Shown: one piece after another, positions 1,668 through 43,894 of the stretch
Position numbering within the stretch: the stretch's first letter is position 1
How the letters are laid out: each line of letters starts with the position of its first letter
From: Patescibacteria group bacterium
Lineage (GTDB): Bacteria > Patescibacteriota > Minisyncoccia > UBA6257 > 02-FULL-45-10c
Assembly: GCA_018969615.1 (NCBI GenBank)
Contig: JAGWYA010000002.1
Span: 3,070 to 67,069 of the forward strand
Length of the DNA stretch: 64,000 bases
Direction of reading: 5' to 3'
Translations under genes and position numbers: made by a program
Notes under the pieces: generated by a model
Databases searched by the model: none
What the model saw: the letters and a program-made list of their open reading frames with translations, nothing else
Told to the model about the DNA's origin: nothing

Positions 1668-2825
1668 ATGGATAATAATTCACCTTTGGGCATGAATCAG
1701 CAGCCGGGAGGAATGCCGCCGGTTCCGCCGCAGCGGCCGACGACTCCGCCACCGCCGCCACCGCCGGAGATCACGCTCCGCACGATGCAGTCCGATATGC
1801 AGGATCTTAAGCAAAGCGGCGGAGCCGGATCCGCTCCGAAGCCGTTCACGCCTCCGGAACTGAAATCTGATCTGCGACAGTCAATGACCCCGCCTCCGAT
1901 GCCGAAAATGCCGCAGGGCAGTTTAGGCGAGCCGCGCCCGGCGATGCCGGCAGGTTCAGCAGCGCCGAAGATCGAAGCCGAAGCTCCGAAAGGAGGGAAC
2001 TGGAAAAAGATCGTCCTCTGGGGCGGCATCCTTATCGTGATCGTCGCCGCCGGCGTTGCAGGCTATCTCTTTGTTTACCCGGCGCTCTTCCCGCAGGTTC
2101 CGCCGGCGCCGCCTGCTCCGGTAGTAACCCCGGTCCAAACACCGACCCCGGCTCCATCACCGATGCCAGCCGCCCCGGTGACCGCTCCTGCGACAACGAC
2201 CGCAACCTCAACCGAGGCAACCGCAACGACGACGCTGAGCGCGACGACACCGGCGCCTGCACCGGCCCATGTTTCGCTTCTTGCATCCGTTGCAAACACC
2301 ATCCCGCTGACCATCTCGCCGCTTGACCTTGTGACCCTGAAAGCTGCATTGCAGACCGAAGCGCAAAAACTGGGTGCAACCGATACCCTCACCGAGGTCA
2401 CGCTTCACGATGCGAACGATCAGATGCTGACCGCGGGAAATGTCATGTCCGCGATCCTTCCTGATCTGACCGCAGGCACCGTCACGAATCTCTTCAATGC
2501 CGACATGACGACGGCGCTCTACAAGGACGCGAACGGCGTCTGGCCGGTCTACATCCTGCAGTTAAGCACGACCGCAAGCCAGGTAGCGGCACAGCCAACC
2601 GTGACCGGACTCGAATCATCGCCGAACCTCGCGAACCTCTTTATTTCGGCACCGGGCGCCGCAGCGGCAACCGCCTTCAAGAGCGGTACCGTGAACGGGA
2701 CTGCGACCCGCTATATGCCGTACACGACGACCGGCGCATCGCTGAACATCGCCTGGTCCGGAACGAAACTGGTCATCAGCACGTCATACAACGGCGTGAA
2801 AAAAGTTCTGAGCGACCTGAAATAA
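1668..2825 (+). CDS. Hypothetical membrane-anchored protein with Pro-rich N-terminus, one TM helix and a Thr/Ala-rich low-complexity linker
   Basis: 385-aa ORF; N-terminal PPPPPPPE tract; hydrophobic segment IVLWGGILIVIVAAGVAGYLFVY; TATATST-type low complexity. No enzymatic motif recognised. Confidence 0.5.
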   Translation: MDNNSPLGMNQQPGGMPPVPPQRPTTPPPPPPPEITLRTMQSDMQDLKQSGGAGSAPKPFTPPELKSDLRQSMTPPPMPKMPQGSLGEPRPAMPAGSAAPKIEAEAPKGGNWKKIVLWGGILIVIVAAGVAGYLFVYPALFPQVPPAPPAPVVTPVQTPTPAPSPMPAAPVTAPATTTATSTEATATTTLSATTPAPAPAHVSLLASVANTIPLTISPLDLVTLKAALQTEAQKLGATDTLTEVTLHDANDQMLTAGNVMSAILPDLTAGTVTNLFNADMTTALYKDANGVWPVYILQLSTTASQVAAQPTVTGLESSPNLANLFISAPGAAAATAFKSGTVNGTATRYMPYTTTGASLNIAWSGTKLVISTSYNGVKKVLSDLK

Positions 2826-2881
2826 CGATAGAATGAGATCGTTCAAAAAACCGCTTCGACTTTGGTCGGAGCGGTTTTTTA

Positions 2882-4423
2882 TTACACCTCGTCGCGCAGC
2901 CGGTAATGGAATGCTTCGCTGAGATGCTTCAAGGTCACCTGATCGCTCCGATCAAGGTCCGCGATCGTCCGCGCCGTCTTGAGCGCCCGATAATAGCCGC
3001 GCGCGGATAAGGTTTGTTTTGCATACAGTGTTTTTAAGAACTGTTCGCCTTCGGCATCAAGAGGGACCAGCGTATCGACCATGCGCGAGGTCATCTCGGA
3101 ATTCGTCATGATCGGGACCCCCGCCGCACGGAACCGCTCTTGCTGTCGCAGGCGCGCATCGGCGATCTGTTTTCGCATTGCCGCAGCGCCTTCCGTATCG
3201 CGCGTGCGCGCACGCAATTCATCAAGCTTCACGCGCGGAACTGCGATCTGCAGATCGATGCGGTCAAGCAGCGGACCGGAGATCTTCTTTTGATACCGGA
3301 TCGTCTCATAGGCGGAACAGGTGCATTCCTTTTCGTCATCCCCGTAATATCCGCACGGGCACGGGTTCATCGCCGCAACCAGGATGAATTTCGCCGGAAA
3401 GACCAGATTGTTCTTCACGCGCGAGATCACCACTTTTCCGCTCTCCAGCGGCTGGCGCAGCGCCTCTAAAAGATCACGCCTGAACTCGGGAAGCTCATCA
3501 AGGAACAGAACGCCGCGATGCGCAAGACTGATCTCGCCGGGGCGGGGATTCTGTCCGCCGCCGATGACCGCGACCGGGGATGCGGTCTGATGAGGGGACC
3601 TGAACGGACGCCAGCTGATGAACGCATCGTGCTTCAAAAGGCCCGCAGCGCTATAGATCTGCGTAACCTCAATGATCTCATCGTGCGCCGGCGGCGGGAG
3701 GAGCGATCCGAGCGCCTGAGCCAGCATCGTTTTTCCGGTTCCCGGACTTCCCTGCATCAGCAGATTATGACCGCCTGCCGCGGCGATCATCAGCGCGCGC
3801 TTTGCCGGCAACTGCCCTTTGATGTCCGCGATATCAACAAGATGGTGCGCCGACGAAAGCGATCCCCGGAGATCGGTCCGCGGCTGGAGAACGTTCGACG
3901 CACGTCCTTCAAGCATAAGAATAAGTTCCTGTAATGTGGCCGCGGGGAGCACCGAGACCCCTTCGACGATCGCCGCCTCAGCTGCGTTCGCCTTCGGGAC
4001 CACAACGGTTGTGAAACCGGCACGATGCGCGGCACGGGCGATGTTTAAAACTCCGCTCACGCTCCGGATCGCTCCATCCAAAGCGAGCTCGCCCGCAAAA
4101 AGCATCGCGGAAGCATCGAACGCTTTCATCTGCTTGGTCGCCAGGAGATAGCCGATCGCGATCCCGAGATCATATTGCGATCCGGTCTTCTTCACATCGG
4201 CGGGAGCCAAGTTCACCACGATCTTCCGGTTCTCCCGATTCGGCGGCTTCACGCCGCTGTTCTTCAGCGCCGAGCCGACGCGTTCTTTTGCTTCTGACAA
4301 CGATTTATCCGCAAGCCCGACGATCGCAAAACTATGCAGCCCCGAATGGATATCCGTCTCGATCTCGATCACCTGCGCATCGATCCCGTCAACCGATGCG
4401 GAAAAAACCTTGGAAAGGTTCAT
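2882..4423 (-). CDS. YifB/ComM family Mg-chelatase-like AAA+ ATPase
   Basis: 513-aa ORF. N-terminal Lon-like/ChlI domain, Walker A GSPGTGKT, Walker B VLFLDELPEF, CPCG zinc motif, C-terminal Mg_chelatase_C-like region. Confidence 0.85.
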   Translation of the reverse strand: MNLSKVFSASVDGIDAQVIEIETDIHSGLHSFAIVGLADKSLSEAKERVGSALKNSGVKPPNRENRKIVVNLAPADVKKTGSQYDLGIAIGYLLATKQMKAFDASAMLFAGELALDGAIRSVSGVLNIARAAHRAGFTTVVVPKANAAEAAIVEGVSVLPAATLQELILMLEGRASNVLQPRTDLRGSLSSAHHLVDIADIKGQLPAKRALMIAAAGGHNLLMQGSPGTGKTMLAQALGSLLPPPAHDEIIEVTQIYSAAGLLKHDAFISWRPFRSPHQTASPVAVIGGGQNPRPGEISLAHRGVLFLDELPEFRRDLLEALRQPLESGKVVISRVKNNLVFPAKFILVAAMNPCPCGYYGDDEKECTCSAYETIRYQKKISGPLLDRIDLQIAVPRVKLDELRARTRDTEGAAAMRKQIADARLRQQERFRAAGVPIMTNSEMTSRMVDTLVPLDAEGEQFLKTLYAKQTLSARGYYRALKTARTIADLDRSDQVTLKHLSEAFHYRLRDEV

Positions 4424-4965: not shown

Positions 4966-5035
4966 GCCCTTATTCTAGTACAGCCGGCGGTTTTGTAAAG
5001 CGCCTTCCGGTACGAAAAACGCTATTTGACAGTGC

Positions 5036-5064
5036 AATTTTTTTATGGTACTCTATAAAACAAG
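5036..5064 (+). promoter_or_regulatory. Sigma-70-like promoter: TTGACA (5036-5041), 17-nt spacer, TGgTACTCT extended -10 (5056-5064)
   Basis: Consensus -35 hexamer and TG-extended -10 read from the sequence, about 75 nt upstream of the 5140 ATG. Architecture resembles the promoters at 43332 and 41563. Confidence 0.5.
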
Positions 5065-5139
5065 TTAGCCAGTACCTTGTACAACAGCAGAAGTGTCGTT
5101 AAATCAACCCCCAATACGGGGCAGGAGAGGTGTACGACC

Positions 5140-5907
5140 ATGAAGAACGAGTCGAGAGCGCAGGAGCTGGAAAAGAAGTACGGCCTCGTCTACAAGCTCG
5201 CCTCGAACGTCTCGACGACCGTCGGGACGCTGGAGAACCTGAAGCACAACGGGCAGGCACCGACGTCCGAGCAGGTTTCGGCGAGCGTCGAGGCGAAGAT
5301 GAAACTCCAGAGGGCCGCGATCGAGCTTTCCCCGAGGAAAGTCTCGGAGGTGGCGGAGTACGTCGAGCGGATGGCCTTCGCGTCGGCGATGGTTCCCGAG
5401 GGGAACAGACTCGTCTGGAAGCCCGAAGTGAGCTCGAGCATCGCGAACCGGCTCGTCTCGCTCCGGGAGGCGTTCGTCCTGAAGACGGAGGCTGAGGCGA
5501 AGCAGGACAGCCGCTGGAAGATCTGCTCGTCGCGGATCCTCTTCGTGCGGTCCTTCATCAACCTGGCCAAGGTGACGGGCTACGAGCCGCGCCACGGCAT
5601 GAACCCGCGCGCGGTGCGCGAGGTCCTGGAGATGGCGGACAAGCAGCTGAAGCATCTCGAGACGACGACGCTCGGAGACGCGGACAAGCGGATGAAGATG
5701 TGGGAGTCCGCGAAGCGCCTGCGGAGCGTCGCGCCGAAGCACTGGCTCGTCGAGAAGAAGCCGGAGCCCAAGCAGTACCAGGGCGAGTCCGGGTCGTTCA
5801 AGCTCGGCGCCGCGTGCGGCGTCGAGTCCGACACGACGGCCAATCCGTCCCCGAAGAAGGCGAAGAAGCGCCCGAAGTTCACCTCGGGCGGGGAGCAGAA
5901 GGCGTAA
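5140..5907 (+). CDS. Hypothetical lysine-rich protein (255 aa) with extreme GC-ending codon usage and a KKAKKRPKF C-terminal basic patch
   Basis: ATG 5140 preceded by SD aggagagg; ORF track 5077..5907. In a 37-codon stretch near the 5' end, 35 codons end in G/C. The long antisense ORF 5104..5997 is the usual artefact of GC3-rich coding DNA. A strong terminator lies at 5921-5957. Confidence 0.55.
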   Translation: MKNESRAQELEKKYGLVYKLASNVSTTVGTLENLKHNGQAPTSEQVSASVEAKMKLQRAAIELSPRKVSEVAEYVERMAFASAMVPEGNRLVWKPEVSSSIANRLVSLREAFVLKTEAEAKQDSRWKICSSRILFVRSFINLAKVTGYEPRHGMNPRAVREVLEMADKQLKHLETTTLGDADKRMKMWESAKRLRSVAPKHWLVEKKPEPKQYQGESGSFKLGAACGVESDTTANPSPKKAKKRPKFTSGGEQKA

Positions 5908-5920
5908 GCCGGCGACACAC

Positions 5921-5965
5921 GCCCCACCGATACCGATCAACTCGGTATCGGTGGGGCACCAATTT
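5921..5965 (+). terminator. Rho-independent terminator (16-bp perfect stem gccccaccgataccga / tcggtatcggtggggc)
   Basis: Perfect inverted repeat 14 nt after the stop codon at 5905-5907. Confidence 0.65.
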
Positions 5966-9098: not shown

Positions 9099-10955
9099 AT
9101 GCCACAGCGCTCCCATCCTTCACCGCTCAATACAACCCAGGAACAAGCGGTCCGCCATTCCGGAGGACCGCTTTTGATCGCCGCCGGCGCCGGATCGGGA
9201 AAAACGAAAACGCTTACGAGCCGGCTTTTGCATCTTTTGGAGACCGGCGTCGCTCCGCAGGCGATCATTGCGATCACGTTCACCAACAAAGCCGCGAAAG
9301 AAATGAGGTCGAGAATAACGAATAATGAATTAGGAATAACGAACGGGGCGACTGATGAAAAAAAGAGCGGCGTAATTCATAATTCGAAATTCATACTTCC
9401 ATTTATAGGAACGTTCCACGCGCTCGGCGTCCGCATCCTGAAAGAAGAAGCGCACTGGGTGGGACGCACATCACACTTCACGATCTTCGACGACGAGGAT
9501 AGCGCGAGCCTGATCAAATCGATCCTGAAAGAACTGCAGCTCTCCAAGGACCGCTTCAGTCCGTACGCCGTCATCGGCCAGATCTCACGGATCAAGAATG
9601 AATTGATCAATGTCGATGAGTACGCGGACGAAGGCCGCTATGAACACACGATCGCGACCGTCTACCGGAAATATAATGAAACACTCCTGCACAGCAACGC
9701 GTTCGATTTTGACGATCTCATCGAGAAGGTCGTCCGCATCTTCCTTGAGCATCCCGAAGTGCTCGCCAAATACCGCGCCCGCTGGCAGTATGTTCTCGTC
9801 GATGAGTTCCAGGACGTGAACACGAACCAGTACCTGTTCGTAAAACTGCTCGCCCAGGAGCACAAGAACATCTTCGTGATCGGCGACGACGCGCAAAGCA
9901 TCTATGCGTTCCGCGGTTCCGATTTCCGGAACTTCCTCAATTTCGAAAAGGACTGGCCGGATGCGAAGGTGATCCTGCTGACCGAGAACTACCGTTCCAC
10001 GAAAAATATCATCAACGCCGCCTCGGCGCTCATCAAACATAATTCGTTCCAAAAGCCGAAGGATCTCTGGACCAGCAACCCGGAAGGGGAGCTGATCAAC
10101 GTTATGGCGTTCCAGAACGCCGAGGAGGAAGCGGTCTCGGTCGCCCAGCGGGTCCGCGAAGCGCTCGGCGGCGGCGAATCTCCGAAAGAGATCGCGGTCC
10201 TGTACCGTACGAACGCGCAATCCCGCGCGCTCGAGCAATCGCTCATCAGGAACAACATTCCGTACGAGATCTACGGCGGGCTGAAGTTCTATGCCCGCAA
10301 GGAGATCAAGGACATTGTCTCCGCGATCCGGTACGCGTTCAATCCGAAGGACCGCTCCGCGATCGACCGCATCACGAAAACGTTCAATAAAGGCCCGCGC
10401 ATCGCGCTTCTGGAAGCGCTTCCGCGTCTTGCCGAAGAAAGGCTGTCGCTCGTTGAACTGATCCAATATTTCCTTGAAGAGACCCGCTACACCGAATTCC
10501 TCGCCCTTCATTTCAAAAATCCCGATGAACGCCTTGAGAACATCAAAGAACTGATCCAATTTGCCGCGAGCTTCAACGATCCGCATGATTTCATCGAGCA
10601 GGTGACGCTGTTATCCTCGCTCGACGGCCGGCCGAAACTGCAGGAGAACGCGGTGAAACTGATGACGATCCATCTGTCCAAGGGCCTTGAGTTCGACCGC
10701 GTCTTCATCGTCGGCGCGAACGAAGGACTGCTTCCGCATGAACGCTCAATGATAAAGAACGATGACCTCGAAGAAGAGCGGCGCCTGATGTATGTCGCCA
10801 TAACCCGCGCCCGGAAACATCTCACGATCAGCTTTTATGATCTGCCGTCGCGGTTCCTCGGCGAACTGCCGCCGGAACTCATCGCATTCACGAAAGTCAG
10901 CAGTTACGGCGCCGAAACCCGCGACTGGGATGATGAAACGATATACTTAGAATAA
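9099..10955 (+). CDS. uvrD: UvrD/PcrA-type superfamily-1 DNA helicase carrying an in-frame AT-rich insertion between motifs Ia and Ib
   Basis: N-terminus PLNTTQEQAV...LIAAGAGSGKTKTLTSR (Walker A); motifs TFTNKAAKEM, GTFHALGVRIL, VLVDEFQDVN, VIGDDAQSIYAFRG, YRS, VTLLSSLDGRPK...LMTIHLSKGLEFDRVFIVG. The ORF track starts at GTG 9072; ATG 9099 matches the canonical N-terminus. Confidence 0.85.
   Translation: MPQRSHPSPLNTTQEQAVRHSGGPLLIAAGAGSGKTKTLTSRLLHLLETGVAPQAIIAITFTNKAAKEMRSRITNNELGITNGATDEKKSGVIHNSKFILPFIGTFHALGVRILKEEAHWVGRTSHFTIFDDEDSASLIKSILKELQLSKDRFSPYAVIGQISRIKNELINVDEYADEGRYEHTIATVYRKYNETLLHSNAFDFDDLIEKVVRIFLEHPEVLAKYRARWQYVLVDEFQDVNTNQYLFVKLLAQEHKNIFVIGDDAQSIYAFRGSDFRNFLNFEKDWPDAKVILLTENYRSTKNIINAASALIKHNSFQKPKDLWTSNPEGELINVMAFQNAEEEAVSVAQRVREALGGGESPKEIAVLYRTNAQSRALEQSLIRNNIPYEIYGGLKFYARKEIKDIVSAIRYAFNPKDRSAIDRITKTFNKGPRIALLEALPRLAEERLSLVELIQYFLEETRYTEFLALHFKNPDERLENIKELIQFAASFNDPHDFIEQVTLLSSLDGRPKLQENAVKLMTIHLSKGLEFDRVFIVGANEGLLPHERSMIKNDDLEEERRLMYVAITRARKHLTISFYDLPSRFLGELPPELIAFTKVSSYGAETRDWDDETIYLE
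9311..9396 (+). mobile_element. Roughly 87-nt AT-rich MITE-like insertion inside uvrD, in frame (encodes about TNNELGITNGATDEKKSGVIHNSKFILPF); the ends are homologous to the ends of the 10946-11365 cassette
   Basis: Left end gagaataacgaataatgaattaggaataacgaac matches ttagaataaggaagtatgaataaggaatcaggg at 10946. Right end ggcgtaattcataattcgaaattcatac matches ggccgtaattcctaattcgaaattcatg at 11331 (15-nt exact core taattcgaaattcat). Left and right ends are imperfect inverted repeats of each other (acgaataatgaattagg vs reverse complement tcgaattatgaattacg). Confidence 0.5.
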
Positions 10956-24795: not shown

Positions 24796-25501
24796 GTACT
24801 TTTTCTTCTTCTTTAATATTGATGGTCTTATTGATATAGATCTGCTGACCGGCGGTAAAGACCGAGGTCACCACCCAGTACAAACCGATCGCCGAAGGAA
24901 GAGTTCCCAGGATCACCACCGTGATCACCGGACCGATGAAGATCATCTGCCGCGTCATTTGATCCGCAGTCGAGAGCTCCTGCCCCTTTTCGAGCTTCGG
25001 TAGTGCCAGGCGCCCTTGCACGTATTGTGCCGCTGCCGCCAGGATAACCATAAGAATACTCGGATTTTGGAGATTGAGCAAGTGCAGGAACGTAGCGTTT
25101 ATCTGCTGCGGGACGGCAACAAAGCTATACAGCAGCGTCAGAGACTCCGGAGTGATCTTCTGTAAAAAGACGCGATAAAGTCCGATCAACACCGGAAGCT
25201 GGACCAGCAGCATCAAAAATCCCGAAAAAGGGTTCACATTATGCTGCCGATAGAGCTCCATCATAGCCTGTGCCTGTTTTTCTTTATCATCCTTATGCTG
25301 ATGCTGGATCTTTTTAATATCCGGCTGAAGCTTTTGAATAAGGGTCTGGTTCCGGGCGCCTTTATAGAAAAGCGGCATGAATGCGATACGGATCGCGAGC
25401 GTCAAAAGAATGATCGCAACGCCAAGATCATGAAACGCGATCGTGTTATAGAACACGATGAGCGCATTGAGGAACGGGGTGTAGAAAATGGCTTGGAGCA
25501 T
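24782..25501 (-). CDS. yidC: Membrane protein insertase YidC/Oxa1 (short form)
   Basis: 239 aa; multi-TM; conserved region LAIRIAFMPLFYKGARNQTLIQKLQPDIKKIQHQHKDDKEKQAQAMMELYRQHNVNPFSG; located between rnpA and jag. Confidence 0.8.
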   Translation of the reverse strand: MLQAIFYTPFLNALIVFYNTIAFHDLGVAIILLTLAIRIAFMPLFYKGARNQTLIQKLQPDIKKIQHQHKDDKEKQAQAMMELYRQHNVNPFSGFLMLLVQLPVLIGLYRVFLQKITPESLTLLYSFVAVPQQINATFLHLLNLQNPSILMVILAAAAQYVQGRLALPKLEKGQELSTADQMTRQMIFIGPVITVVILGTLPSAIGLYWVVTSVFTAGQQIYINKTINIKEEEKVHGLA

Positions 25502-25516
25502 AGAAAGATAAATGGC

Positions 25517-25846
25517 TTACCGGGCGATGCCGCGGACCGCTGCTGCGACCGATCGGGTAAGATCGTGCGCATCGGTGCGGGATGCTGCGGCGTTCACAAT
25601 GAAAAGAAGATCGGAACGGGAGAGAAGCTTCGGGGCGTGCATCTCCCGCAAGGCATTAAAGAAGATACGGCGGAGGCGCGTGCGGTCGGATGCTTTTTTC
25701 ACGGTCCCTTTTTTAAGAACAACGCCAAAACGGGCATAGGGGAACGGGCTCGGGAACACTTTAACTGAAAATTCGGGGAAGGGGATCGTGCGGCCTCGCA
25801 TGTCCCGGGTTGACTGGATCGGAAGACGGTATTTCTTTGCCAGCAT
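25517..25846 (-). CDS. rnpA: Ribonuclease P protein component
   Basis: 109 aa basic protein with KKYRL start, RTRLRRIF motif, and position downstream of rpmH. Confidence 0.8.
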   Translation of the reverse strand: MLAKKYRLPIQSTRDMRGRTIPFPEFSVKVFPSPFPYARFGVVLKKGTVKKASDRTRLRRIFFNALREMHAPKLLSRSDLLFIVNAAASRTDAHDLTRSVAAAVRGIAR

Positions 25847-25886
25847 AGATACGCGAATCGCGGGACATGCCCGCGAATTGCTTTAC

Positions 25887-26021
25887 TTAGACCGTCAACC
25901 GATGACGCCCCTTATGACGGCGCGCCGTCAGTACTCGGCGCCCTCCCTTCGTCCTGTTCCGGCGAAGGAAACCATGCGTCCGGGCCCGTTTTCGCTTTTT
26001 AGGTTGATATGTTTGCGACAT
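25887..26021 (-). CDS. rpmH: 50S ribosomal protein L34
   Basis: 44 aa [44 protein letters not shown]; the ORF track extends to 26225, but the canonical L34 starts at the ATG whose complement is CAT at 26019-26021. Confidence 0.9.
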
Positions 26022-26217
26022 GAAACCAGTATATACTATCGTTTCAGGCGAGGCAAGCAAGGAATTCGCTCCGCTGCACGGCCATTTTTTGCGATCCGAC
26101 AGGCATTGCATGGCATACCAGCGCACGTTTGATACAAAATGGCAAATTACTATGGACAAACGATCTGCGTCTCGGTCATACTGATAAAAAATACACCCGT
26201 TGCTGATGCAAAAACAG

Positions 26218-26226
26218 TTATCCACA
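26218..26226 (+). promoter_or_regulatory. Perfect DnaA box TTATCCACA in the rpmH-dnaA intergenic region (candidate oriC/dnaA promoter element)
   Basis: Exact 9-mer consensus; nearby AT-rich tract taaaatgaatatatatttt at about 26280-26300. Confidence 0.6.
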
Positions 26227-26392
26227 AGGCATCAACAGATTATTATCTTTTCACTGTTTCCTTCTGCGGCGCATCCGTTTAAAATGAATATATATTTTCG
26301 GTGTGTTTCTCCGGTACTTCTTAAAAATCATTTTTCAGTCCGTTGAAGTAAGGCAACGGGCGGTGGGAGAGTAATCATTTTATTTTTTTATC

Positions 26393-27760
26393 ATGGAGTT
26401 CGAACAATTGTGGCAAACTGCGCTCGGTGAAATAGAAACTCAGGTTTCTAAGCCGAACTTTGCGACCTGGCTGAAGAACAGTAAGCTCTTGGACAAGCAA
26501 GAAGGCGTGGTCTTGGTCGGACTTCCGAACACTTTTGCAAAAGAATGGGTGGAGAACAAGTATCAGAAGATCATTTTGAACGCGCTGCGCAATCAGGACC
26601 AGGCGACAAAGAAGGTTCAGTTCACGGTGCATAACACGAACATCGCTCCGACGCCGCTCCCGCAGCGAAAACCGAAGCAGGTCAGCGAAGAAGAGTTCAA
26701 GAAACAGCTTGCGTTCGAAGAACTGAAGATCGATCCGGAAACGAACCTCAATCCGCGCTATCGCCTGAGTTCGTTTGTCGTCGGCAAAACGAACGAACTC
26801 GCGTACGCCGCCGCAAGCGCGGTTATTGATGAGATCGGCCGGAAATATAATCCGTTGTTCTTCTACGGCGGCACCGGACTGGGAAAGACCCATCTCATCC
26901 AGGCGATCGGGAACGAGATCAAAGTGCGCTACAAGGATAAAGTACGCGTGAAATATGTGTCGTCCGAAAAATTCACGAACGATGTGATCTACGGGATCCG
27001 GAACAAGCGCATGGAGGACATGAAGGACAAGTACCGGAACGTCGACGTTCTGATCATCGATGATATTCAGTTCATCGGCGGCAAGACCACGACGGAAGAG
27101 GAGTTCTTCCATACCTTCAACGCGCTCTACGAGAACAATAAACAGATCATCATCTCGTCCGACCGCCCGCCGAAGTTCATCCCGACCCTGGAAGACCGCC
27201 TGCGGTCCCGGTTCGAAGGCGGCATGATCGCGGATATCTCCTATCCTGACTACGAACTGCGCCTTGCTATCTTAAAGACTAAGCTCCAGGAGCGCGGAGC
27301 GGCCTTGCCGGAGAACATCGTTGAGTTCATCGCCAATAAGATCCAGAAGAACCTTCGCGAACTGGAGGGGGTGCTGAACCGGATCCTGTTCTACCAGTAC
27401 GCAAAGAAGGAAGTGACCCTGAAGATGGTGGAAGAGATCGTCAGCGGCGTCCTTCAGCAGCCGACCAAGAACATCAATCCGAACCAGGTCATTAAAGCGG
27501 TCGCTGATTACTATGAGATCTCCCAGAACGATCTGACCGGCCGCTGCCGCCAGAAAAGCATCGTAGAACCGCGCCAGATCACCATGTACCTCCTCCGGGA
27601 CATTCTCGGCCTTTCCTACCCGGATATCGGCCAAAAACTGGGCAAGCGCGACCATACCACGGCGATCTATGCGACGAATAAGATCTCCGAAGAGATCAAT
27701 AAAGATCAGGACCTCAATCAGAAGATCCTGGCGATCAAAGATCTGGTTTATAAAGAATAA
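26393..27760 (+). CDS. dnaA: Chromosomal replication initiator protein DnaA
   Basis: 455 aa; N-terminal domain, Walker A GGTGLGKTHL, Walker B VLIIDDIQF, sensor/arginine finger, C-terminal DNA-binding HTH (TTAIYATNKI). Confidence 0.95.
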   Translation: MEFEQLWQTALGEIETQVSKPNFATWLKNSKLLDKQEGVVLVGLPNTFAKEWVENKYQKIILNALRNQDQATKKVQFTVHNTNIAPTPLPQRKPKQVSEEEFKKQLAFEELKIDPETNLNPRYRLSSFVVGKTNELAYAAASAVIDEIGRKYNPLFFYGGTGLGKTHLIQAIGNEIKVRYKDKVRVKYVSSEKFTNDVIYGIRNKRMEDMKDKYRNVDVLIIDDIQFIGGKTTTEEEFFHTFNALYENNKQIIISSDRPPKFIPTLEDRLRSRFEGGMIADISYPDYELRLAILKTKLQERGAALPENIVEFIANKIQKNLRELEGVLNRILFYQYAKKEVTLKMVEEIVSGVLQQPTKNINPNQVIKAVADYYEISQNDLTGRCRQKSIVEPRQITMYLLRDILGLSYPDIGQKLGKRDHTTAIYATNKISEEINKDQDLNQKILAIKDLVYKE

Positions 27761-27959: not shown

Positions 27960-29069
27960 ATGAAATTAGTAATACTCAAAAATAATCTCCGCGAAGGATT
28001 AACGGCGATTGACCGGGCTGCGGGAGAACATGCGAACCTTCCGATCCTGAAAAATGTCCTGGTAAAGACCGCTGATAATAAGATCCGCCTTTCGGCGACG
28101 AACCTTGAGATCGCCGCATCGCGGTCCGTATCGGGAAAGATCGTTGAGGAAGGGAGTATTACGGTTCCGCTTGCGACCTTGCTGACGATCGTGAACAATA
28201 CGGCAAGCGAACGGATCACGCTCGAGACCGACCAGAACACGCTGTTTTTCAAGACGGATAACTATGAAGCGACCATTCAGGGTCTTCCTGAAGAGGAATT
28301 TCCGATCATTCCGAAGATCGAGAATAAGAAGGAATATCTCTCGTTCAGCGCGGATGTTCTGCGCGATGCGGTCCTGAAGATCCTTTCAACGATCCAAGTT
28401 TCAGAGATCCGTCCCGAGATCGGCGGGATGCTTTTTGATTTTGAGATCACGTACCTGAAATTTGCGGGAACGGACAGTTTCCGGCTTGCGGAAAAAACGA
28501 TCACGGAAACGAATTTTACCAGCACGTTTACCCGCGGGTTTAAAGTGATCGTTCCGCTGAAAACGATGCAGGAAGTGCTCAGGATCATGGTTAAAGGCGA
28601 GGTGACGATCTTCATTGATCCGAACCAGATCCTCTTTCAAGGCGAGGATACCGAGATCATTTCCCGGCTTATCGAGGGGACCTATCCCGAGTATGACGCG
28701 ATCACGCCGAAATCATTTGAAACGGAAATGACGATCGAACGCGAGCATCTGATGAATGCGGTCAAATTGGTCAGTACGTTCAGCGGAAAAGTGAACGAGA
28801 TCAAAATGAAACTTCACGACGGAAAGAAGGTGTTGGAGGTCTATTCGATGAATCAGGCGCTGGGTGAAAATAAATATCTGGTGCCGGTCAAAGCGAAAGG
28901 GGAATCGTTCGAGACCGCGTTCAATTGGCGGTATGTCATGGAAGGATTGAAGAACTTTGAAAGCGCCGAAGTGTTCTTCGGTGTGAATGGCAGCCATCGT
29001 GCGGCGCTGCTGAAGAATCCGAGCGACGCATCATATTTTTATATTGTGATGCCGATCAATATGAACTAA
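27960..29069 (+). CDS. dnaN: DNA polymerase III beta sliding clamp
   Basis: 369 aa, immediately downstream of dnaA; typical MKLVILKNNLREGL start and three-domain length. Confidence 0.9.
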   Translation: MKLVILKNNLREGLTAIDRAAGEHANLPILKNVLVKTADNKIRLSATNLEIAASRSVSGKIVEEGSITVPLATLLTIVNNTASERITLETDQNTLFFKTDNYEATIQGLPEEEFPIIPKIENKKEYLSFSADVLRDAVLKILSTIQVSEIRPEIGGMLFDFEITYLKFAGTDSFRLAEKTITETNFTSTFTRGFKVIVPLKTMQEVLRIMVKGEVTIFIDPNQILFQGEDTEIISRLIEGTYPEYDAITPKSFETEMTIEREHLMNAVKLVSTFSGKVNEIKMKLHDGKKVLEVYSMNQALGENKYLVPVKAKGESFETAFNWRYVMEGLKNFESAEVFFGVNGSHRAALLKNPSDASYFYIVMPINMN

Positions 29070-34820: not shown

Positions 34821-34832
34821 CTTTAAAATAAA

Positions 34833-34995
34833 AATAGAAGGCTTTGTTCTGTGGGCAAATATCCCGTCAGGGAAAAAGTGGAACTTTCCTAAAATAAATT
34901 TTAGAAAAGGTTAGAATTATTCTGAGGAGTGGCCTCGCCTGAGCCAAGCCATCCGTCTAGAAGTAATTCCCGCCCACAGAACAAAACCTTCTATT
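34833..34995. repeat. About 163-nt non-coding element bounded by a 24-bp inverted repeat (1 mismatch): aatagaaggctttgttctgtgggc ... gcccacagaacaaaaccttctatt
   Basis: Inverted repeat read directly from the sequence. The interior contains the palindrome ctaaaataaattttag; the element sits between pilB and ruvB. Confidence 0.5.
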
Positions 34996-35062
34996 TATCG
35001 GAGAACACCTGCATTGGATTGATAATAATATAGCATAAATAAATACTATTGTCAATACCCTT

Positions 35063-41627: not shown

Positions 41628-41885
41628 ATGATCTTTTGGGTTTGCTTAGCCGTTTGGATCCTTATTGGTAGGTCGCTTATCTGGCTTTATCGCAGAGAGT
41701 ATCATAATAAATATCCATTCTTGCGAGAGCTTCAGGAACTGGAAGATAAAGAAGTTAATGAATTTCGCGCAGAAGTGTATCCGATCATAAGATGCGCAGC
41801 AGATTTCGCAGTTATTCTTATTACCGGATTGCTGTGGCCATTGGATATCTATATGTATCGCAGGTGGGCAAATAAAAGAATTTAG
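41628..41885 (+). CDS. Small membrane protein (85 aa, two TM)
   Basis: AT-rich ORF; two hydrophobic helices; terminator ggaatcgcctataaaataggcgatttttttt follows. Confidence 0.4.
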   Translation: MIFWVCLAVWILIGRSLIWLYRREYHNKYPFLRELQELEDKEVNEFRAEVYPIIRCAADFAVILITGLLWPLDIYMYRRWANKRI

Positions 41886-42777: not shown

Positions 42778-42802
42778 ACATCGTTTGAATTATTTTGCGC
42801 GA

Positions 42803-42863
42803 GAAAGCGCCAGTCCCTTTTTCAGTAACGGGTTCTTACACTGAAAAAGGGACTGGCGCTTTC
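42803..42863. repeat. Perfect 24-bp-stem hairpin (gaaagcgccagtccctttttcagt / actgaaaaagggactggcgctttc, 13-nt loop)
   Basis: Inverted repeat read directly from the sequence, 26 nt after the holA stop; it may serve as the holA terminator, although the stem is far longer than typical terminators. Confidence 0.55.
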
Positions 42864-42891
42864 TTCGTATTGCGTATTTTATATAAAAATA

Positions 42892-42950
42892 AGGCAGGAT
42901 ATCTTTGGGGCAGCATAAGACCCCGGCGCTGTTCCAAAGATATCCTGCCT
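42892..42950. repeat. Perfect 17-bp-stem hairpin (aggcaggatatctttgg / ccaaagatatcctgcct, 25-nt loop)
   Basis: Inverted repeat read directly from the sequence. Confidence 0.55.
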
Positions 42951-43022: not shown

Positions 43023-43283
43023 TTATTTTGCCGTTGCGAGAAGTTTTGCGAGGCGGGACTTGAGGCGGGAGGCGGTGTTCTTTTTGATCGTTCCCACTTT
43101 TGCGGTCTTGTCGAGAACCTTGTAGACCTTCGGAAGTTCCGCTTTTGCTTCGTCGAGCTTCTTTGCTGCGACGAGTTTCTTATAGGCTTTGAGCGCTTTC
43201 TTCATCACTTCCTTCCGCGCTTCGTTCTGTGCGCGGCGGGTGAGGTTCTGGCGGTAGGCCTTTTTTGCTGATTTCGTGATCAT
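43023..43283 (-). CDS. rpsT: 30S ribosomal protein S20
   Basis: 86 aa; MITKSAKKAYRQNLTRRAQNEARKE... is characteristic of S20; a terminator hairpin lies at 43000-43022 on the minus strand. Confidence 0.9.
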   Translation of the reverse strand: MITKSAKKAYRQNLTRRAQNEARKEVMKKALKAYKKLVAAKKLDEAKAELPKVYKVLDKTAKVGTIKKNTASRLKSRLAKLLATAK

Positions 43284-43331
43284 AGGTGATAGCGTATAGT
43301 GTAGACGCTTCCCGGTCCGATGTCAATATAT

Positions 43332-43359
43332 TTGACAAAAGGCAATTTTATGCTATACT
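43332..43359 (+). promoter_or_regulatory. Consensus sigma-70 promoter TTGACA (43332-43337), 16-nt spacer, TATACT (43354-43359)
   Basis: Hexamers read directly; the surrounding sequence (tatttgaca ... gcaatttt ... atg.tact.tat) resembles the promoter at 5036. Confidence 0.55.
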
Positions 43360-43394
43360 ATCTTCCAGAACGTCACATTCTTAGGGAGGGCCAT

Positions 43395-43739
43395 ATGGCC
43401 AAACACCAGAAGGGCGAGAAGAAGAGCAAGAAGCAGCTCAAGGAAGAGAAGAAGGCGCAGCAGGAGGCCGCCAAGTCGCACCGCAAGGCCTTCGTGGGTC
43501 TGCCGGCGCGCGAGCGGCATCCGGCGCAGGTGTTGTGCCGCATCCTCCAGTCGAGCGGCCTGAAGGCGATGGGCGAGTACTCGCAGAAGCACGGCCTGCA
43601 GAGGGTCATCGAGTCCCCGCAGGTCATCGCGGCGGTCGCCCGCTACGAGAAGCGCAAGGAAGACCGGCGCGTCGGCCGCCAGAAGAAGGAGGAGGCCGCG
43701 AAGACCGACGAGTCGGTCGCGCAGCAGACGGAGGCCTGA
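43395..43739 (+). CDS. Hypothetical small basic Lys/Glu-rich protein (114 aa) with extreme GC-ending codon usage
   Basis: SD agggaggg then ATG 43395. 109 of 114 codons end in G/C and AAG is used for 18 of 19 Lys codons, unlike the neighbouring rpsT. A terminator hairpin follows at 43745-43782. Confidence 0.55.
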   Translation: MAKHQKGEKKSKKQLKEEKKAQQEAAKSHRKAFVGLPARERHPAQVLCRILQSSGLKAMGEYSQKHGLQRVIESPQVIAAVARYEKRKEDRRVGRQKKEEAAKTDESVAQQTEA

Positions 43740-43744
43740 CACAA

Positions 43745-43782
43745 GCCCCGTTCCATCGAAAGATGGAGCGGGGCTCTTTTTT
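43745..43782 (+). terminator. Rho-independent terminator (gccccgttccatc gaaa gatggagcggggc + TTTTTT)
   Basis: 13-bp stem (one G-U) followed by a T-run, directly after the stop at 43737-43739. Confidence 0.7.
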
Positions 43783-43894
43783 ATTGTTTGTCCAAATTAA
43801 ATTCTGACTGATAGGTCGGAGTTTAATTTGGGTATAAACAATAAACCCCGCCAAAGGCGGGGTAATATCGAGAGGCGATCCTGATCTTGCTTAC

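Follow-up and report, generated by a model that had tools for sequence, protein, structure and literature searches.

The stretch of DNA analyzed in this study, hereafter the window, comprises 64,000 nucleotides of contig JAGWYA010000002.1 from a metagenome-assembled genome (MAG) of Patescibacteria. Positions 43395-43739 of its forward strand hold an open reading frame (ORF) running from ATG to TGA, which is annotated as hypothetical protein KGO95_01670 and is here termed gene X. It encodes 114 amino acids with an isoelectric point (pI) of 10.1, and its G+C content at third codon positions (GC3) is 0.956. Gene X truly codes for protein and is monocistronic; its extended -10 promoter is near-consensus, and its Shine-Dalgarno sequence and terminator are strong. 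It represents a new family, whose composition is unusual and has persisted. The original prediction had already singled out X as GC3-extreme; this observation is stronger than was stated then, because the whole clade shares the GC3 excess.

The promoter of X is predicted at 43332-43359 of the plus strand and consists of a -35 hexamer TTGACA (43332-43337), a spacer of 16 nt with a T-rich distal part, a TG at 43351-43352 and a -10 hexamer TATACT (43354-43359). The near-consensus TTGACA-16-TATACT promoter proposed earlier was thus recovered, with the extended -10 TG in addition, and the -35 element, spacer, TGn, TAnnnT and placement ahead of the Shine-Dalgarno sequence and ATG are all those of sigma-70 extended -10 promoters. 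Judged from the position of the -10 hexamer, the 5' untranslated region (UTR) would be ~29 nt long. The Shine-Dalgarno sequence AGGGAGG (43383-43389, plus strand), as read from the sequence, lies 5 nt upstream of the ATG. Just after the stop codon, a G+C-rich hairpin (43744-43775; 14-bp stem with 9 G-C pairs) and the subsequent T-run CTTTTTTATT form an intrinsic terminator of the Rho-independent type (43744-43785, plus strand). In six of eight orthologous loci both the promoter core TTGACAA...TTTTATGCTATAMT and the terminator hairpin AAGCCCC...GGGGCT-T(n) are conserved; the loci L008 and L014 have variant forms of the promoter and carry different hairpins.

Upstream of X and divergent from it lies rpsT (43023-43283, minus strand) with its own promoter, TTGACA-17-TACACT (43298-43326, minus strand). 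The -35 hexamers of the two genes stand back to back and create the palindrome TGTCAA-TATAT-TTGACA (43321-43337). The same arrangement, GTCAA-N-TTGACA, is present in L002, L008, L011, and L014.

Codon composition of gene X and its relatives

A recount confirmed G/C at the third position in 109 of the 114 codons of X, and the gene stood out as an outlier from the 20 long genes that served as background in the window (GC3 0.60-0.81, mean 0.72, standard deviation 0.05), being ~4.8 standard deviations higher. The dominance of AAG among the Lys codons was found as well, at 17 AAG to 1 AAA (18 Lys in all) and not at the 18 of 19 given previously. Glu is encoded by 11 GAG and 2 GAA, and Gln by 12 CAG and no CAA. 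The adjacent rpsT uses AAA and AAG in near-equal numbers (10 and 11), as had been noted. When the window was scanned phase-specifically in sliding steps of 50 codons, whole-gene segments at 0.98-1.0 GC3 were found only at 43382-43775 and 5103-5943, that is, at X and at the gene starting at 5140 (gene Y, see below), for which the original prediction had proposed the same codon statistics. The overall GC content is 0.67 within the X ORF versus 0.41 in the flanking 100 nt on each side, with sharp edges at both ORF ends. Furthermore, X shows strong 3-periodicity (G+C content 0.67, 0.39, and 0.96 at codon positions 1, 2, and 3, termed GC1, GC2, and GC3) and is depleted in U and in UA dinucleotides.

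The X family is small. A search with the single X sequence returned two of 5.77 billion proteins, namely KGO95_01670 itself and one relative of 105 amino acids. An exhaustive HMMER search of 1.84 billion representatives yielded four true relatives in all, three of them new, plus one spurious repeat protein, and a profile search with the family gave 19 clusters (5.8 billion proteins). One of these clusters is annotated as Candidatus (Ca.) Harrisonbacteria, and three GTDB genomes with X are titled Ca. Harrisonbacteria.

In all ten loci that were read, X adjoins rpsT, and in nine of them it occupies the slot on the plus strand between rpsT and uvrB, both on the minus strand. The typical context consists of fpg, a holA-like gene and rpsT on one side and of uvrB, ruvA and a Mur ligase gene on the other. 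Two subfamilies were distinguished, group A including the window and group B including the named Harrisonbacteria, and this split matches the similarity of holA, uvrB, and rpsT. Relatives of X were found neither in IMG/VR viral contigs nor in GenBank phages or PLSDB plasmids, and no mobility genes or tRNA were found flanking X. As X stands beside rpsT in all loci and viral or plasmid relatives were not found, we conclude that it was inherited vertically and not acquired recently. X is a lineage-specific, vertically inherited, small family, whose named members come from Ca. Harrisonbacteria and related Patescibacteria.

The sole locus without uvrB beside X is L021, from Ca. Harrisonbacteria RIFCSPHIGHO2_02_FULL_42_16. 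Here (9884-10160), X is split by a frameshift into 70 amino acids and a continuation ...VRWIERAEKR in another frame, so that the copy is decaying or the assembly erroneous.

X is the gene with the highest GC3 in each of the ten loci, and where at least five background genes exist, it lies 3-11 standard deviations above the background. Given as X versus the background mean, GC3 is 0.96 versus 0.65-0.72 in the window, 0.93 versus 0.68 in L002, 0.85 versus 0.52 in L010, 0.69 versus 0.55 in L009, 0.69 versus 0.50 in L013, 0.78 versus 0.39 in L008, 0.79 versus 0.36 in L011, 0.71 versus 0.34 in L014, 0.87 versus 0.38 in L020, and 0.71 versus 0.42 in L021. Pooled over the ten loci, the ratio of AAG to AAA is 106:22 in X versus 59:143 in rpsT, which is equally rich in Lys; in L011 alone, it is 15:1 versus 2:20. 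C- and G-ending codons are favored alike and in every amino acid family, and GC1 and GC2 are elevated too, so that the composition of X would suit a genome with 62-68% GC, whereas its hosts have 40-55% GC. The 5' UTR and the flanks of X are AT-rich in most loci (GC content 0.26-0.42).

Between the two subfamilies, X has a synonymous divergence (dS) of ~1.1 and the neighboring genes are saturated. Across this distance the GC3 of X is still 0.3-0.5 above that of the host. Since a dS of ~1.1, at which synonymous sites have been replaced more than once, would have erased a merely historical composition, a continuing directional force must maintain the excess, which is an inherited family trait. 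Host codon preference swings from A/T-ending to G/C-ending codons across the lineages, and X keeps its G/C-ending codons throughout, which would make it improbable that the bias reflects adaptation to lineage-specific tRNA pools.

Structure and evolution of the X protein

All proteins of the X family are basic (pI 9.5-11.6). They share a conserved helical core of ~35-50 amino acids with fast-evolving charged tails, and in the core motif R..(Q/K/R)SSG(L/F)..A..YA..(H/F)G the residues R49 and G55 are invariant and S53 nearly so. The AlphaFold2 model, calculated with an alignment of 19 sequences, is all-helical, with a mean predicted local distance difference test score (pLDDT) of 81 and values of 93-96 in the core. 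It comprises short helices at residues 43-54, 56-66, and 69-72, followed by a long helix from residue 75.

The loose resemblance of the central region to a SAP/HeH-type pair of DNA-binding helices, which had been put forward as a speculation, was not corroborated. The window's X does contain a loose L..L...GL...G pattern and has basic tails. The Pfam families SAP (PF02037) and HeH (PF12949), however, gave no match, the thresholds being E<=10 for X and E<=1 for the 19 members. The second Gly is not conserved in the family, and a two-helix fold with a conserved Gly-containing loop that superposes on solved SAP/HeH domains was not found. The structure prediction and fold search proposed for the 114-residue protein resulted in the helical model described above, for which Foldseek returned no SAP/HeH or other fold match (E>5). 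That X is a SAP/HeH-type protein is consequently hardly credible.

Similarly, scans of X, Y or all 19 members against Pfam, NCBIfam, PHROGs, and PADLOC revealed nothing significant. The best PADLOC match of the family, Cas11a (E 0.004, 2 of 19 members), is insignificant after multiple testing, and X was accordingly rejected as an anti-phage defense or phage protein. The only sequence-profile match in the PDB, a protein named 'Chantal' (E 0.077), was judged meaningless. The motif LRR..(R/Q)S..G and the neighborhood of rpsT gave a lead to a divergent bS21, which was abandoned: hhalign of the family against E. coli bS21 assigned a probability of 0.15%, and no member of the family matched S21 in Pfam or NCBIfam. 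Membership in the HU, H-NS, Lsr2 or Hc1 families was also rejected, as neither a sequence match in Pfam, NCBIfam or the PDB nor a fold match was obtained.

The window and L002 come from close strains, with 93.6% nucleotide identity across uvrB-ruvA and 98-99% identical RpsT, UvrB, and RuvA proteins. The two X proteins are only 64% identical, and their nonsynonymous divergence (dN) is 0.255 versus 0.006-0.011 in the neighbors. This divergence is confined to the 5' UTR, the N-terminal tail and the C-terminal linker. Specifically, the hypervariable N-terminal tail, rich in Lys, Glu, and Gln (43398-43517, plus strand), is essentially replaced in L002, with a length difference of 42 nt, and in the variable charged C-terminal tail (43659-43736, plus strand) the linker is replaced and the final AAKTDESVAQQ block is kept. 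The conserved core between them (codons 42-88, HPAQVLCRILQSSGLKAMGEYSQKHGLQRVIESPQVIAAVARYEKRK; 43518-43658, plus strand), which holds the predicted helices, differs by one nonsynonymous base and by no synonymous one. With a dS of ~0.30 for rpsT and uvrB and 0.16 for ruvA, ~8 synonymous changes would be expected in these 47 codons, and by our own arithmetic the probability of seeing none is ~3e-4. This pattern fits strong synonymous constraint in the lineage whose GC3 is most saturated, but it would also result if the strains had recently exchanged the core. For other pairs, the ratio of dN to dS of X is 0.2-0.6 versus 0.03-0.19 for the neighboring genes.

Promoter motif, gene Y and further features of the window

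The original prediction had noticed that the promoter of X resembles the one near 5036 beyond the hexamers. This likeness was substantiated in the form TTGACA-N6-11-TTATGnTA, which occurs three times in the 64-kb window and not once in 100 shuffles; the 'gcaa' block that was thought to belong to it is conserved in the orthologous promoters of neither gene. One copy of the motif is present in 17 of 18 related loci, always ahead of X or Y, the remaining locus being L008 with its variant X promoter. The third copy in the window (35055-35027, minus strand) precedes neither X nor Y but a structured small RNA candidate. The positions common to the promoters of X and Y are solely the -35 hexamer, the T-tract, the TGn and the -10 hexamer, which are the elements contacted by RNA polymerase. 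The looser pattern TTGACA-N15-18-TAnnnT has 9 matches at 8 sites of the window versus 0.74 expected, and other TTGACA promoters precede genes of ordinary or low GC3, namely rpsT (0.66) and a gene for 85 amino acids at 41628 (0.40). A metagenome scan with a stricter form of the motif gave at least 120 matches. The 80 loci retained from it belong to diverse bacteria and showed no association of the motif with GC3: the ORF behind it was a GC3 outlier in at most two of the 80, both weak exceptions and neither of them X-like. Extended -10 (TGn) sigma-70 promoters with the same TTGACA, a T-tract spacer of 16-17 nt and TGnTAnnnT are generic in many bacteria. As the architecture is common to the small RNA candidate and to genes of ordinary GC3, we regard it as a mark of strong promoters and not as evidence for the dedicated X-Y regulon suggested earlier.

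The unit of gene Y (5026-5907, plus strand) consists of a promoter TTGACA-17-TACTCT with TG (5026-5054), a conserved leader of ~80 nt and a gene for 255 amino acids (5140-5907) with a GC3 of 0.945. Orthologs were found in close relatives only, with a GC3 of 0.88-0.96 (e.g., L015 6887-7771 and L018 912-1727), in a fixed context between a dksA-like gene on the minus strand and a beta-CASP gene. Their leaders are conserved and form two hairpins, CAAGTTAGCCAGTACCTTG and CCCCCAATACGGGG, and the proteins have the basic C-terminus PKKAKKRPKF. Neither Pfam nor PHROGs gave a match for Y. Homology between the X and Y proteins was rejected (E 0.32).

Behind the X-like promoter TTGACAATAGTATTTATTTATGCTATATT on the minus strand lies a non-coding unit of ~190 nt (34828-35022; 34828-35055 with the promoter), after which a T-run follows. 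It is predicted to fold into a closing stem of ~24 bp with branches at a minimum free energy (MFE) of -83 kcal/mol versus -44 kcal/mol for shuffles (z -9.9), and it matched no Rfam family even at E<=1. The unit is a candidate for an abundant structured small RNA of this Patescibacterium, perhaps 6S- or SRP-like (SRP, signal recognition particle).

Some further observations concern the surroundings of X. In the group B loci L008 (9675-10001) and L011 (9484-10001), a GC-rich leader of ~260 nt and ~450 nt, respectively, is located between the conserved promoter and X. The two leaders share the blocks GGGTAAATCC.AG.C and GAAAAA.ATAGT.A..AGGAGG, had no match in Rfam and may be structured; the one of L011 holds a hydrophobic ORF of 59 amino acids. 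The window contains three long, perfect or near-perfect hairpins. Two of them, of 25 bp and 23 bp (42802-42864 and 42892-42950), are located between the holA-like gene and rpsT, which are convergent. The third, which is nested (43780-43845; CCAAATTAAATTCTGAC/GTCGGAGTTTAATTTGG within TTTATTGTTT/AAACAATAAA), lies between the terminators of X and uvrB and is absent in the close strain L002. Other palindromic insertions were seen upstream of the X promoter in L009, L010, and L013. These hairpins and insertions look like small mobile palindromic elements. In L004, a GC3-rich 'neighbor' of 259 amino acids was rejected as a second GC3-extreme gene since the metagenome contig is chimeric: within 2770-3759, a Patescibacteria uvrB is fused in a conserved stretch to the uvrB of a high-GC organism, followed by a gene of the enolase superfamily. 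Finally, the cumulative GC skew of the window turns at ~25 kb (~25000-26400), beside dnaA (26393-27760) and dnaN (27960-29069). This site is probably the replication origin, which would place X on the leading strand of the right replichore.

Possible causes of the bias and their significance

The explanation that we favor, giving it about an even chance, is that the X protein binds nucleic acids as an abundant accessory of the nucleoid or the ribosome, and that selection on the message or on its decoding preserves the G/C-ending codons of the gene. The protein would be a small binder of nucleic acids, nucleoid-associated or possibly ribosome-associated, with the core serving binding or dimerization and the tails making non-specific electrostatic contact. 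The codons would be kept for a stable, AU-poor message or for reading by C34 tRNA, and neither tRNA-adapted 'optimal codon' usage nor foreign origin would account for them.

Several points weigh against this explanation. The abundance of X, as judged from the quality of the promoter, the Shine-Dalgarno sequence and the terminator, is no more than probable. No link to a nucleic-acid-binding family was found by fold or sequence. Between the near-identical strains, the dN of X is 25-40 times that of its neighbors, whereas abundant proteins usually evolve slowly. The gene rpsT, which is surely well expressed and shares the promoter region, has no GC3 excess, so expression level alone does not explain the bias of X. 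Moreover, the predicted folding of X mRNA, as MFE in eight orthologs, is no stronger than that of 150 synonymous-codon shuffles (z -1.9 to +1.1), and selection therefore does not act on any particular RNA structure; should it act on the mRNA, it favors bulk GC content or AU-poverty. GC-biased gene conversion at a recombination-prone X locus, lastly, stands as an alternative.

According to this alternative, recombination is frequent at the locus, a hot spot at which strains exchange alleles by way of the conserved flanking genes rpsT and uvrB, and biased repair lifts the GC content without any selection on mRNA. The mosaic of near-identical core and replaced tails and 5' UTR between the window and L002 would agree with this, as would the variable intergenic structure (insertions in L009, L010, and L013, the extra ORF in L011 and the loss of uvrB in L021) and the general character of the bias, which is restricted to no specific codon subset and extends to GC1 and GC2. 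Yet the excess stops at the ORF boundaries and spares the AT-rich 5' UTR and flanks, rpsT at a distance of 110 nt is unaffected in ten of ten genomes, and the phylogeny of X is coarsely congruent with that of the hosts. We consider gene conversion rather improbable. The same low probability is given to a control by codon composition, in which X, and perhaps Y, would be translated preferentially or spared whenever stress, toxin nucleases or dormancy impair AU-rich mRNAs or the U34-modified tRNAs (Lys-UUU, Glu-UUC, Gln-UUG); the G/C-ending codons would be the regulatory code. X indeed strongly favors AAG, GAG, and CAG in all lineages, in contrast to rpsT, the depletion of U and UA is in line with it, and two unrelated GC3-extreme genes of one genome share a rare strong-promoter architecture. 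This architecture is, however, generic in other bacteria, relatives of Y occur in close strains only, the only tRNA of the window is tRNA-Arg(CCG), and the bias is equal in four-fold families, for which the chemistry of U34 does not matter.

Genes of deviating composition are routinely taken for products of horizontal transfer, and the original prediction likewise suggested that X and the gene at 5140 might form one acquired family. Codon usage typical of a genome of 62-68% GC, sharp compositional boundaries, the rarity of the family in databases and a GC3 of 3-11 standard deviations above the host would suit a recent acquisition from a high-GC donor, with the composition as an un-ameliorated relic. 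Against it stand the position beside rpsT in ten of ten loci at 40-55% GC, with uvrB downstream in nine, the two deep subfamilies that track holA, uvrB, and rpsT, and a dS >1 between them, over which a relic would have decayed. The flanks lack mobility genes and tRNA, phage, plasmid or viral relatives were not found, the promoter and terminator are of native type and conserved, and the X and Y proteins are not homologous. Recent acquisition is thus largely refuted and retains next to no probability. Another reading, very improbable and disfavored, is that the locus functions through a structured, GC-rich RNA or through another ORF, antisense to X or overlapping it. RNA genes typically form GC-rich islands in AT-rich genomes, the strong promoter and terminator resemble those of non-coding RNAs, and the codon-for-codon antisense frame is free of stops in six of eight loci and has one stop in the other two. 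Open antisense frames are, however, an expected by-product of the avoidance of TTA, CTA, and TCA, no Rfam match was found in the window and four loci (tRNAs apart), and folding does not exceed that of synonymous shuffles. In close pairs, substitutions in X concentrate at codon position 3, and the start MA(E/D/N)QKK with its ATG and the Shine-Dalgarno sequence are conserved across loci; the sense frame, which also carries the 3-periodicity of GC, is therefore the coding frame.

With regard to known systems, X resembles small basic nucleoid-associated proteins whose charged tails are of low complexity (mycobacterial HupB/MDP1, chlamydial Hc1, H1-like tails) in its size of ~100 amino acids and pI of ~10, its indel-prone, rapidly changing tails rich in Lys, Ala, and Glu, its strong expression signals and its neighborhood of DNA repair and replication genes. 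It is related neither in sequence nor in fold to HU, H-NS, Lsr2 or Hc1, and would work like a nucleoid-associated protein by analogy only. We know of no lineage-wide GC3 excess in the genes of HU, H-NS, Lsr2 or Hc1. Selection or biased conversion favoring G/C at bacterial synonymous sites has reportedly been described by Hildebrand et al. 2010, Hershberg & Petrov 2010, Raghavan et al. 2012, and Lassalle et al. 2015. X is like those cases in that a directional force would hold synonymous GC above the mutational equilibrium; there, the effect is weak and genome-wide, whereas here it concerns a single gene of 300-380 bp, with +0.13 to +0.49 GC3 in genomes of 40-55% GC. With codon-biased stress regulons, such as the mycobacterial DosR regulon with its 'modification-tunable transcripts', said to have been described by Chionh et al. 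2016, X shares a gene-specific synonymous skew opposite to that of housekeeping genes, but its bias is a blanket preference for G/C at the third position across all amino acids. Like horizontally acquired atypical genes, X is an orphan with GC content and codon usage off the host; unlike them, it is fixed beside rpsT, bears no mobility signatures and is un-ameliorated despite saturated dS.

X is a vertically inherited GC3-extreme gene whose excess lasts through saturated synonymous divergence in genomes of 40 to 55% GC, and it thereby offers a clean example from nature in which codon-based regulation, biased gene conversion and selection on synonymous GC can be told apart. A broader proposal, to which we attach only a small probability, is that Harrisonbacteria-type Patescibacteria maintain a small set of genes (X, and in this lineage also Y) whose content of G/C-ending codons is a selected character. 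Such a composition 'code' would decouple mRNA survival or decoding from the AT-leaning transcriptome, for example in dormancy, upon tRNA damage or during host attachment. If this were true, X would be the founding, clade-wide example of a gene that is passed on vertically and yet behaves as though its genome were richer by 15-25 GC points. Its hosts are uncultivated Patescibacteria with reduced genomes, in which gene expression has scarcely been studied. For this lineage of the Candidate Phyla Radiation (CPR), X flags a basic, probably abundant protein that could be a chromatin component or a ribosome accessory of its own.

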